This document shows positions 2,781-4,967 of a DNA stretch of 64,000 nucleotides, piece by piece; within the stretch, counting starts at the first letter, position 1; each line of letters opens with the position of its first letter. The notes beneath the pieces were generated by a model. That model saw only the letters and a list, made by a program, of their open reading frames with translations. It was not told the DNA's origin and did not search any database. Position numbers and translations under genes: made by a program. Origin of the DNA: Verrucomicrobiia bacterium (lineage in GTDB: Bacteria > Patescibacteriota > Saccharimonadia > Saccharimonadales > JAGQNK01); contig DATHJY010000002.1 in assembly GCA_035489575.1 (NCBI GenBank), forward strand, positions 15,080 through 79,079, in the 5' to 3' direction.

Positions 2781-3100
2781 CAAAAAGAGATTACTGCTAC
2801 CTGTACCTGACCTGCGAAGACGCTGCCCAGGCCTCGCGCATTGCCAAGTCCTTGCTAGGCCGGCGGCTGGTAGTGTGCGCCAAGCAAGTCCCCGTGCAGG
2901 CAGCTTATTGGTGGGAGTCCAAGATCACTCACGCTAACGAAGTTTTACTGGTCATGGAAAGTGCGTTAGATTTATTTGATCGGGTAGAAGCAGCAGTTGC
3001 CAAGCTGCACAGCTATGACACATTTGTTTTAGAGGCGGTACCCATTGCAGCAGTATCGACAAAAGCTAAGGCATGGATGGAAGAGAATTTAGATGGCTAA
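2777..3100 (+). CDS. cutA: CutA-like divalent-cation tolerance protein
   Basis: YCYLYLTCEDAAQASRIAKSLLGRRLVVCAKQ...AAYWWESKI...EVLLVMES...HSYDTFVLEAVPI matches the CutA1 fold pattern. The ATG at 2777 overlaps the upstream stop (ATGA). Confidence 0.75.
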   Translation: MTKRDYCYLYLTCEDAAQASRIAKSLLGRRLVVCAKQVPVQAAYWWESKITHANEVLLVMESALDLFDRVEAAVAKLHSYDTFVLEAVPIAAVSTKAKAWMEENLDG

Positions 3101-3275
3101 AAAAGATTATTACGAAGTACTTGGCGTTGGCAAAACTGCCAACGCAGATGAGTTCGTGAAGGCTTCTGACCAAGCGCTGACGTTGACTAATGCGGGACTT
3201 TTTGTTACTATAGGCTTACAGCACCCCGTGTTGGCTTCGGCCTCAGCGGGGCTTTTTTGTGGAGGATACGTATGA
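3093..3275 (+). pseudogene. Relic 5' end of a dnaJ gene (J-domain start only)
   Basis: Bases 3093-3141 match the real dnaJ start at 3876-3924 at 48/49 nt. The translation [25 protein letters not shown] then diverges, and there is no HPD motif. Confidence 0.6.
3224..3258 (+). terminator. Putative intrinsic terminator after the dnaJ relic
   Basis: CCCCG...CGGGG stem with an inner GGC-TTCG-GCC hairpin, followed by CTTTTTT. Confidence 0.4.
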
Positions 3276-3883
3276 GAGTTTTAGTAGATGGTGAAAATTT
3301 GCGACATCAGCTTGCGCACATTCTGAAGCAACACCAGAAAATCAACGACAAACACGCTTATTTTCGCTTTGATCTGGTCGGATTCTTACGGGAGTCGTTG
3401 CATGTTGCGTTGGTTGATGTTACCTATTACACTACTCGCATAAAACAGCCCACTCAAAAAGTACCCATAAAACTCCAGAAACGAATCACTTCAATTTCTG
3501 AAGCGAATCGACGCTGGGTAGCAGACCTGACAAACCAAAAAATAACAGTTGTAAAAGCGGGGTATCTGCGTGTTCGAGAATCAGGTGCCTGTGTTCACTG
3601 CAGCAAGAAAACGCTTGTACTACAAGAGAAGGGGGTCGACGTTCGCGTGGCCACAGATTTGGTGATTGCTTCTCACGATAAGCCGCAGAAGACCGTTGCA
3701 CTGGCTTCTTCGGATAGTGACTTGGTGCCTGCAATGCAGGCTGCTCACCGGGATGGCCTGCCCGTTATCTATTTTTGCTATGCAGGGTGGTTGAATCGTT
3801 CGGTTTCTTCGCAGGCCCAAAAGACAATTACGTTTGACGATGCTATGGTTCTCAAATACTTCAAAGGAAACAACAATGGCTAA
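3272..3883 (+). CDS. NYN/LabA-like (PIN-related) domain protein
   Basis: The ATG at 3272 follows GGAGGA at 3261-3266. MRVLVDGENL..., EKGVDVRVATDLV and SSDSDLVPAM are typical NYN-domain acidic motifs. Confidence 0.8.
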   Translation: MRVLVDGENLRHQLAHILKQHQKINDKHAYFRFDLVGFLRESLHVALVDVTYYTTRIKQPTQKVPIKLQKRITSISEANRRWVADLTNQKITVVKAGYLRVRESGACVHCSKKTLVLQEKGVDVRVATDLVIASHDKPQKTVALASSDSDLVPAMQAAHRDGLPVIYFCYAGWLNRSVSSQAQKTITFDDAMVLKYFKGNNNG

Positions 3884-4967
3884 AAAAGATTATTACGAAG
3901 TACTTGGTGTTGGCAAAACTGCCAGCCCAGACGAGATCAAGAAAGCTTTCCGGCGAGCAGCCGTAGAGCACCACCCCGACAAAGGTGGTGACGAGGCTAA
4001 GTTCAAAGAAATCAACGAAGCTTACGAAGTGCTCAAAGATTCGTCCAAACGCCAACGCTACGACCAGTTTGGCCACGCCGGCGTGGGTGGCAATGGTGGC
4101 GGTGACCCATTTGGTGGCTTTGGTGGACAGGGCCAGAACGTCAACTTTGACTTTGGCGACATGGGCTTGGGTGACATCTTCAATAGTTTCTTTAGCGGTG
4201 GTACGGGAGGCGGCGGTCGTCAGCGTCAGGCACGAGGCCGCGATGTAGAGGTAGCCGTAGAAGTTAGCTTTGAGCAGGCTGTCTTTGGCACAGAGGTAGA
4301 TCTGAATATCGAGTTAGAGGACGAGTGCGAACACTGCAAAGGCAGTACCGTAGAGCCGGGCCACGAGATGAAAAAGTGCGACGAGTGTGATGGCCATGGT
4401 CAAGTAACCCGCGTTATGCGTACTGTTTTTGGCAATATTCAACAAGCCACGGTCTGTCCCAAGTGCAAAGGTGTTGGCAAGGTGCCCGAAAAAGTCTGCA
4501 CAGTGTGTCATGGCAAGGGTACTCGGCGAAAGAAACAAGAAATTGGCCTGAAAATCCCGGCCGGCATAGACGACGGTTCGACCATTCGATTGCGCGAACA
4601 TGGCGAGGCAGTTGCCAATGGACCAAAGGGTGACTTATACGTGCACGTACGGGTCAAGTCCCACAAGAAATTCACCCGCGAGGGCGACCTTATTCTGAGC
4701 GAAGAAACAGTAGGCATGGTAGACGCGGCCCTGGGCACTGAAATAGAGGTGGACACGGTTGACGGACCGGTCAACATGAAGGTGCCAGCTGGCACTCAGC
4801 CCGGCACTGACTTTAAACTGTCGGGTCATGGAGTACCACATCTCAAGCGTGAAACACGTGGCGCACATATTGTGACTATCCACGTCGAAACACCTACCAA
4901 GCTATCCAAAAAGCAACAGGAACTGCTGGAAGAATTTAAGTCTCATAAAAAACGAGGCTTGTTCTAG
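3876..4967 (+). CDS. dnaJ: Chaperone DnaJ (full length: J domain, G/F region, four CxxCxGxG zinc-finger motifs)
   Basis: [12 protein letters not shown]...HHPDKGG, then a Gly/Phe-rich stretch, then [23 protein letters not shown] and CTVCHGKG. Confidence 0.95.
   Translation: [363 protein letters not shown]

Follow-up and report, generated by a model that had tools for sequence, protein, structure and literature searches.

A duplicated dnaJ start opens into a conserved promoter-hairpin leader of an NYN-domain gene in Saccharibacteria

The heat-shock locus described here lies on contig DATHJY010000002.1 (GenBank assembly GCA_035489575.1, positions 15,080 to 79,079 of the forward strand), a stretch of 64,000 nucleotides (nt) to which we refer as the window. 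The assembly is labelled Verrucomicrobiia bacterium and is placed in Saccharimonadales by GTDB. Between cutA and dnaJ, the window carries a gene for a predicted ribonuclease (RNase) of the NYN/LabA-like family, flanked by two near-identical copies of the dnaJ start, of which the upstream copy is called the relic below. Comparison with related genomes indicates that this repeat leads to a previously undescribed, phylum-wide leader module. The module consists of a predicted sigma-70 promoter, a terminator-like hairpin, a ribosome-binding site and the NYN gene, and in most related loci it is found directly upstream of dnaJ. The interpretation that we favour, with moderate confidence, combines this conserved module with a recurrent dnaJ-start copy that has been homogenised with dnaJ, with translation-coupled attenuation, and with probable control through an interaction of the NYN protein and the hairpin.

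The NYN product scored 40.3 bits against PF01936 (cut-off 24.2) and is preceded by a GGAGGA Shine-Dalgarno sequence, in agreement with the original prediction, made from the letters of the window, of a strong ribosome-binding site followed by an NYN/LabA-like gene. Its AlphaFold2 model has a predicted local distance difference test (pLDDT) value of 94, and a Foldseek search with this model gave 2QIP as the best match (E = 1.8e-6), followed by the NYN domain of MARF1 (5YAA/6FDL). A PDB sequence search with a 16-sequence profile recovered no NYN relative; the fold search alone gave matches. Residues D6, D123, D148 and D150 are invariant in 56 homologues and are assigned to the active site by analogy. 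We consider the protein a confident member of PF01936 with a modelled 2QIP/MARF1-like fold and a predicted RNase role. Among 295 homologues, the organism-named source labels and locus titles were Saccharibacteria/TM7, except for a few labels of metagenome-assembled genomes (Verrucomicrobiae, Dormibacteraeota, Limnocylindrales), which we take to be mis-binned. Literature searches on NYN in Saccharibacteria, on NYN with dnaJ and dnaK, and on structured RNA motifs of Saccharibacteria found no papers.

Loci of relatives (numbered from L001) were gathered by exact protein look-ups, by a genome scan with the hairpin pattern and by a metagenome scan with the NYN alignment. Placement was counted over 62 non-redundant Saccharibacteria NYN genes, 56 of them informative and six on contigs that were too short. 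The NYN gene was found at most 200 nt upstream of dnaJ in 30 of the 56 informative loci, and it adjoins dnaJ in all 16 informative loci in which the NYN protein is at least 51% identical to that of the window. Six of the 62 genes lie within 1.5 kb of dnaJ with cutA or a second NYN gene between, and for 20 there is no dnaJ in the vicinity. NYN and the chaperone genes have the same orientation. Where cutA precedes dnaJ in relatives (L032, L033, L039), NYN is upstream of cutA. The original prediction held that NYN had entered the heat-shock operon by recombination, and proposed comparing cutA-dnaJ junctions in relatives for an uninterrupted overlap. No uninterrupted cutA-ATGGCTAA-dnaJ junction was present among the fetched loci, and when DnaJ and CutA of this genome were looked up by exact match, the loci recovered had the same arrangement, apart from one contig broken at the repeat; no empty or excised variant was among them. 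Together with the frequent position beside dnaJ, the missing empty junction speaks against a new arrival. Two variations on the gene itself were observed. In the oral-type TM7 contigs L041, L063, L068 and L046, the NYN protein has an N-terminal MSKNPDNSQK extension. L088 and L091 have two tandem NYN paralogues between dnaK and dnaJ, the second of which in L088 has its own leader open reading frame (ORF) and a variant hairpin.

A promoter scan of the window detected a sigma-70-type promoter with an extended -10 element upstream of NYN (Table 1). The promoter of relatives reads TTGACA, a 17-nt spacer ending in TG and then TAnnnT, and in 31 of 36 non-redundant loci the spacing between this motif and the hairpin is constant. 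Six to seven nucleotides past it come ACAGCACCCCGUGUUGGC-loop-GCCUCAGCGGGGCUUUUU and then the NYN ribosome-binding site. The presence of this promoter modifies the earlier suggestion that the predicted RNase is directly under chaperone-operon transcription: co-orientation and the overlap of the NYN stop with the dnaJ start are in its favour, yet a gene with its own conserved promoter is not simply under the operon.

The hairpin of the window is built from two helices separated by a symmetric internal loop, and has the form of an intrinsic terminator, a G+C-rich hairpin followed by a U tract; a terminator scan likewise returned 3233-3253 plus the T run. A covariance model (R1) built from 38 sequences identified it as the sole strong match in the 64-kb window, and across the loci it matched strongly once in each (47-67 bits), in all cases on the strand of NYN. 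The exact pattern occurs once in the window and once in each of 13 species genomes, all of them Saccharibacteria. In the alignment 99% of cells are paired, with compensatory changes in 4-5 of 9 pairs; none of 500 shuffles reached the observed values, and slid controls paired at 33-68%. The loop is variable (UUCG, GAAA, GCAA and others). In six divergent lineages CCUCG/CGAGG replaces CCCCG/CGGGG within the same two-helix fold, and these variants have a small symmetric internal loop, a U tail and free energies of -15 to -21 kcal/mol. The hairpin also accompanies NYN where no chaperone genes are nearby (L013, L015, L018 and the oral group around L041). A scan of window positions 2000-5400 with the covariance models of Rfam 15, at E up to 10, found no family matching the hairpin. 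These findings mark it as a conserved RNA element without an Rfam family, and not as the end of a dead fragment.

Tandem arrangements of the promoter-hairpin unit were also detected. Two units lie upstream of NYN in L011 (1918-1961), L029 (3364-3407), L014 (4540-4667) and L082 (715-753), and in L019 (minus strand, 5860-5990) two units lie upstream of dnaJ with NYN missing. The 5' arm of the window hairpin (3219-3230) reads CAG CAC CCC G, or QHP, in the leader frame. Derivation of the hairpin from the HPD region of the J domain (CAC CAC CCC GAC, 3966-3980) was rejected, as the remaining 26 nt match at 8 positions by eye, and the likeness of the QHP and HHPD codons is probably a coincidence. Function as a DNA operator was considered unlikely because the halves of the internal loop are non-palindromic and a U-G pair is kept in 35 of the 38 sequences. 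The hairpin was also rejected as a controlling inverted repeat of chaperone expression (CIRCE), the HrcA operator, since its sequence is unrelated to the consensus TTAGCACTC-N9-GAGTGCTAA.

Upstream of the hairpin, the relic opens a reading frame of 60 codons, whose ATG overlaps the cutA stop, which runs through promoter and hairpin, and whose TGA overlaps the NYN ATG as ATGA. It was called as a gene in three further assemblies (L001-L003). An equivalent leader ORF, defined as one whose ATG lies upstream of the -35 box and whose frame continues across the hairpin to a stop at the NYN start or shortly beyond it, was present in 24 of 37 non-redundant loci. Shuffling the flanks with promoter and hairpin held fixed gave an expectation of 3.95, and 24 was never attained in 200,000 simulated sets. 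Of the three frames, the one with the ATGA ending had an upstream ATG and stayed open in 17 of 36 loci, as compared with 1/36 and 5/36 for the others. Lineages differ in the frame used through the hairpin, and their leader peptides show no conservation. What is conserved appears to be translation across the hairpin, not the peptide product. The original prediction described the first copy as a diverged J-domain start that loses its frame and ends at a terminator-like hairpin. Its diverged J-domain character stands; the loss of frame and the end at the hairpin do not, as the frame remains open for 60 codons (3093-3275). The first dnaJ copy can thus be regarded as not inert, supplying the start of the predicted leader ORF. 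An ORF that starts upstream of a terminator and reads through it is also the layout of pyrBI-type leaders. In L041, L063, L068 and L046 the ORF that spans promoter and hairpin is no short leader; it forms the 3' end of a genuine upstream gene of 150-176 aa.

In a repeat search, the relic and the genuine 5' end of dnaJ were paired as direct repeats of 73 nt with 89% identity. Compared base by base, the copies differ within the first 49 nt solely at position 33 (C/T), and the following 35 nt contain 14 mismatches (Fisher p = 8e-6). This agrees with the originally described difference at 1 of 49 nt between 3093-3141 and 3876-3924, to which we add the weaker similarity reaching 73 nt. Also as first described, both copies share the start ATGGCTAAAAAAGATTATTACGAAG, and the TAA stops of cutA and NYN are both embedded in the ATGGCTAA of the respective dnaJ start. 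By tblastn the relic is 75% identical to DnaJ residues 1-28, and NCBIfam DnaJ models match it weakly over residues 1-25. A perfect 9-bp hairpin, GCGTTGGCA-AAAC-TGCCAACGC, lies inside the relic (3124-3145); the relic-specific substitutions at repeat positions 33, 50 and 52 all lengthen its stem relative to the dnaJ copy, and no obvious conservation of it was seen in L103.

Copies of the dnaJ start were identified in several relatives (Table 1). In 8 of 40 loci the 260 nt upstream of the hairpin contained a J-start-like motif, against a background density of 0.075 per kb. The window, L007 and L103 have a common junction of about 30 J-domain codons followed by the -35 box, which argues for one origin. 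Copies in relatives are decayed, doubled or differently placed. Because relatives carry the same arrangement with dnaJ-start copies of their own, the comparisons indicate that the duplication is old and recurrent.

The relics track the dnaJ of their own genome. Relic residues 14-17 follow the local gene, with KTA(N/S) in the window, KGAS in L103 and K(I/N)AS in L007. Over positions 1-49 the window relic matches its own dnaJ at 48/49 versus 30-39/49 for dnaJ of other species. Over positions 50-73 this preference is lost (17/24 with its own dnaJ, 13-17/24 with foreign ones), and the match of the window relic to that of L007 in this part (14/24) is no better than that of relic to dnaJ. A near-identical block with a sharp edge, nearer to the paralogous copy than to orthologues, is the mosaic expected of gene conversion. 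The abrupt rise in mismatches, 1/49 followed by 14/35, suggests that gene conversion acted recently in this lineage. The best reading of the 48/49 tract is that it was homogenised with dnaJ not long ago, through gene conversion or a comparable homologous exchange. Of the initial idea that NYN entered by recombination through the dnaJ 5' end, recombination at the dnaJ start is retained, while a recent entry of NYN is not.

Another duplicated element was noticed near dnaJ starts. An element CTGATTACAGACTG..GGGCAGGCGAAG immediately precedes the start codons of both dnaK and dnaJ in L025 (1410-1460 and 4157-4215) and is also found upstream of the long dnaJ-start relic in L102/L103 (L102 1885-1945); its 3' half occurs upstream of the dnaJ-start relic in L076 (3298-3312). 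L025, L076 and L102 each have a short relic cut at GATTATTAC|CC just before this element. Its appearance suggests a leader common to heat-shock genes, copied together with the dnaJ start.

One mechanism that could unite these features is translation-coupled attenuation of the pyrBI/pyrE type. On transcripts from the CIRCE-controlled dnaK promoter, ribosomes leaving cutA would restart at the overlapping relic ATG, cross the hairpin along the leader ORF and prevent the terminator from forming, so that transcription and translation would be handed over to NYN through ATGA and then to dnaJ through ATGGCTAA. Transcripts from the internal promoter would begin at the hairpin, without the start codon of the leader; here the hairpin could form, and either attenuate by termination or cap the NYN-dnaJ mRNA. 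The hairpin is probably also a recognition site for the NYN RNase, which may in this way control its own expression and that of dnaJ, because the internal loop of the hairpin hardly varies and the hairpin stays with NYN also outside the chaperone operon.

Several points weigh against this interpretation. The outer helix is almost invariant and so gives no evidence of structure on its own, and support from covariation comes mostly from the inner helix and the divergent variants. The hairpin is absent from a minority of NYN genes directly after cutA or dnaK (NYN loci without it are L033, L034, L081, L084, L092, L093 and L096). The leader-ORF statistics ignore phylogenetic non-independence, though the ORF sequences are highly diverged, and 13 of the 37 hairpin-bearing loci have no leader ORF, which means that the ORF cannot be essential to hairpin function. 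With the promoter inside the leader ORF, the model has to assume two classes of transcript. The mosaic would look the same after gene conversion as after a recent Campbell-type re-integration, and it is compatible with either direction of exchange. Termination at the hairpin, promoter use, leader translation and the NYN-hairpin interaction are all steps that we infer from sequence.

The re-integration just mentioned is central to an alternative that we consider unlikely, an updated form of the original prediction in which the promoter-hairpin-NYN cassette, with dnaJ-start repeats on both sides, is transferred or exchanged among Saccharibacteria. The cassette would loop out between the repeats and re-integrate by a single crossover into the dnaJ start of a recipient, the 49-nt tract being the homology used; a crossover within the first 49 nt would give exactly the sharp-edged mosaic observed. 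Identity of NYN is also discordant with that of the housekeeping proteins. Relative to the window, DnaK, DnaJ and RimK of L076 are 83%, 76% and 76% identical with NYN at 36% and a variant hairpin, and those of L031 are 83/75/73% with NYN at 51%; the comparison locus L004 has 86/76/74% with NYN at 70%. The cassette occurs outside the chaperone operon in 20 lineages, and L019 retains relic and hairpins with NYN lost. Against movement stand the informative loci with NYN proteins at least 51% identical, all of which already have NYN beside dnaJ, and the relic-promoter junction common to the window, L007 and L103, which makes the architecture older than these lineages. No circular, excised or empty form was seen in the exact DnaJ and CutA look-ups, and no mobility gene is nearby. 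The tandem NYN paralogues of L088 and L091 permit differential loss, which would produce discordance without transfer.

It is also conceivable, with a still lower probability, that the relic is neutral debris, its likeness to dnaJ maintained by nothing more than sporadic gene conversion, and the leader ORF a functionless by-product, with the hairpin acting as the intrinsic terminator of the dnaK-cutA unit beside an independent NYN promoter. The G+C-rich stem and U6 tail suit a terminator, and the loci without a leader ORF, the unconserved peptide and the lineage-specific frame through the hairpin suit a by-product. However, the promoter precedes the hairpin in every locus, whatever is upstream and also where chaperone genes are missing; this order argues against a terminator of the upstream unit, which would precede the promoter. 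The internal loop and stem are invariant across NYN proteins that are 31-75% identical, unlike an ordinary terminator, and the six-fold excess of leader ORFs with a strong bias to the frame ending in ATGA is not expected of a by-product.

A more far-reaching version of the favoured interpretation would make the hairpin a new Saccharibacteria-specific cis-regulatory RNA recognised and cleaved by the NYN protein, possibly in a translation-dependent manner on the leader ORF as for Rae1, giving an RNase feedback loop in the heat-shock operon of an ultra-small bacterium; the copied dnaJ translation start would at the same time let the leader ORF answer the signals of dnaJ. We regard this combination as quite doubtful.

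A type III toxin-antitoxin-like pair, in which the hairpin RNA would neutralise the NYN nuclease, is very improbable. The order of promoter, small structured RNA, terminator and endoribonuclease gene resembles ToxIN, two tandem promoter-hairpin units occur in L011/L029, L014, L019 and L082, and the protein has a weak VapC-like match (E = 0.085). Most loci have a single hairpin, however, and no tandem array of processed repeats was reported in window positions 2000-6000. The hairpin occurs once per genome in the 13 genomes, and the NYN gene occupies syntenic chaperone-operon positions, a core-gene-like and not a patchy distribution. PADLOC matches reflect generic NYN homology only, and Pfam and NCBIfam gave NYN and a sub-threshold VapC with no ToxN, CptN or TenpN match. 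The type III reading was rejected on the missing repeat array and family match.

Hardly any weight can be given to the repeat being an assembly artefact, a chimeric join at a shared k-mer, of which the original prediction had warned: the Logan k-mer contig L107 does stop 30 nt into the repeat, as expected in a de Bruijn graph if both copies are present in the reads, but three further assemblies from different samples and pipelines span both copies (European Nucleotide Archive L001 and L003, with 0 and 1 mismatches to window 1-9883, and Joint Genome Institute L002, identical to window 1-6387), the copies differ at position 33 and diverge beyond position 49, and analogous copies exist in relatives. 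Around window position 6388, L002 has an indel that cuts rimK into two ORFs.

Table 1. Positions of features at the NYN-dnaJ locus of the window and dnaJ-start copies in related loci
Feature	Position or locus	Strand	Details
cutA	2777..3100	+	PF03091, 80 bits; stop TAA 3098-3100 within ATGGCTAA of first dnaJ-start copy
First dnaJ 5'-end copy (relic)	3093..3165	+	3093-3141 near-identical (48/49); 3142-3165 diverged continuation
Predicted leader ORF, 60 codons	3093..3275	+	from relic ATG overlapping cutA stop, through promoter and hairpin
Predicted sigma-70-type promoter	3183..3211	+	promoter scan; -35 TTGACT 3183-3188, 17-nt spacer, -10 TACTAT 3206-3211
Extended -10 TG	3203-3204	+	within the 17-nt spacer
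NYN-leader hairpin	3218..3258	+	covariance model R1, 64.9 bits; free energy -17.8 kcal/mol
Hairpin outer helix	3224-3229 with 3246-3251		CCCCGU with GCGGGG
Hairpin 3x3 internal loop			GUU/UCA
Hairpin inner helix and loop	3233-3242		GGC/GCC, UUCG loop
Hairpin U6 tail	3253-3258		
NYN Shine-Dalgarno sequence	3261..3266	+	GGAGGA, read from sequence
NYN/LabA-like predicted RNase	3272..3883	+	203 aa; PF01936; stop TAA inside dnaJ ATGGCTAA
Second copy, true dnaJ 5' end	3876..3948	+	ATGGCTAA overlapping NYN stop
dnaJ	3876..4967	+	type I by Pfam: J domain, CXXCXGXG zinc-finger domain, C-terminal domain
Relic copy	L007		MSKKDYHKTLGLSKIASADETKRAFRKA; upstream of NYN promoter
Relic copy	L103		24 residues (letters not shown); upstream of NYN promoter
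Relic copy	L004		MAKRDYYKAN; upstream of NYN promoter
Relic copy	L095 / L019		MAQRDYYEVLT
Relic copies	L022 and L023		probable
Relic copies	L076 and L102/L103		two each
Relic copy	L025		22 nt, downstream of NYN; 95-nt element between copy and true dnaJ

The gene order of the locus is dnaK (to 2060), a 79-aa ORF, a J-domain-only protein, cutA, the 60-codon ORF, NYN and dnaJ. The J-domain-only protein (2358-2780, 140 aa) has a Cys-rich tail (CPYCHG...CRC) and its stop overlaps the cutA start as ATGA. Upstream of dnaK we found by eye a perfect inverted repeat, CTGGCACTC-N9-GAGTGCCAG (L001 2712-2738, window approximately -17 to +9), a CIRCE variant with four mismatches to the consensus; a search of L001 for the CIRCE consensus with three mismatches allowed found nothing. 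CIRCE-like repeats of canonical form stand before dnaJ in L039 and before the relic in L019 and L008.

The closest known parallel in layout is pyrBI/pyrE attenuation in Escherichia coli, where a leader ORF extends through an intrinsic terminator before the structural gene and a trailing ribosome blocks the hairpin. The predicted leader ORF of the window likewise extends through a terminator-like hairpin just before a gene. It differs in having a strong conserved promoter inside the leader ORF, in the conservation of hairpin sequence and not of the fold alone, in a leader start that is a copy of the start of the downstream gene itself, and in having no evident UTP-sensing pause sites. RNases that control their own mRNA through a stem-loop include those encoded by E. 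coli rnc and rne, which act on their leaders, and mammalian Regnase-1, an NYN/PIN-like enzyme which acts on its own 3' untranslated region. The NYN gene shares with these cases the lasting association of a nuclease gene with a conserved stem-loop in the transcript that encodes it. In contrast to them, the NYN-leader hairpin also resembles an intrinsic terminator and would control dnaJ as well as NYN, with binding or cleavage by NYN being putative.

Concerted evolution of duplicated segments by gene conversion is known from tufA and tufB. The window resembles that pair in a short tract that is near-identical within the genome while flanks and orthologues diverge; it differs in that one partner is a fragment of about 90 nt which no longer encodes a J domain and which now appears to serve as the start of a leader ORF.

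Among bacterial proteins of the NYN group, Rae1/YacP of Bacillus subtilis (NYN_YacP, PF05991) is a ribosome-associated endoribonuclease whose cleavage depends on translation of short cryptic ORFs (PMC10351889, PMC12407103). The window protein shares the bacterial NYN grouping, with a predicted RNase role. It belongs to PF01936, unlike Rae1, with 2QIP/MARF1 as the best structural match, and the tie to the ribosome is a feature of Rae1. With the LabA-like proteins of COG1432 and PF01936 it shares domain family, fold and conserved acidic residues (PMC5499597; PDB 2QIP). The 2017 review of the PIN-like superfamily lists no bacterial PF01936 member with a tested nuclease function, and contains no description of a fixed dnaK-dnaJ operon position combined with a dedicated leader RNA (PMC5499597).

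Saccharibacteria have very small genomes with few known regulators, and control of chaperone expression in them is almost unknown. The locus presents a compact candidate regulatory unit consisting of a promoter, a leader ORF, a conserved hairpin without an RNA-database entry and a bacterial PF01936 NYN protein. It also offers a case in which a duplicated gene start appears to have been preserved through gene conversion and to have been put to new use in opening a regulatory frame. Since the same pair of hairpin and NYN gene is present in oral TM7 relatives, the proposed model may be testable in cultivated strains.

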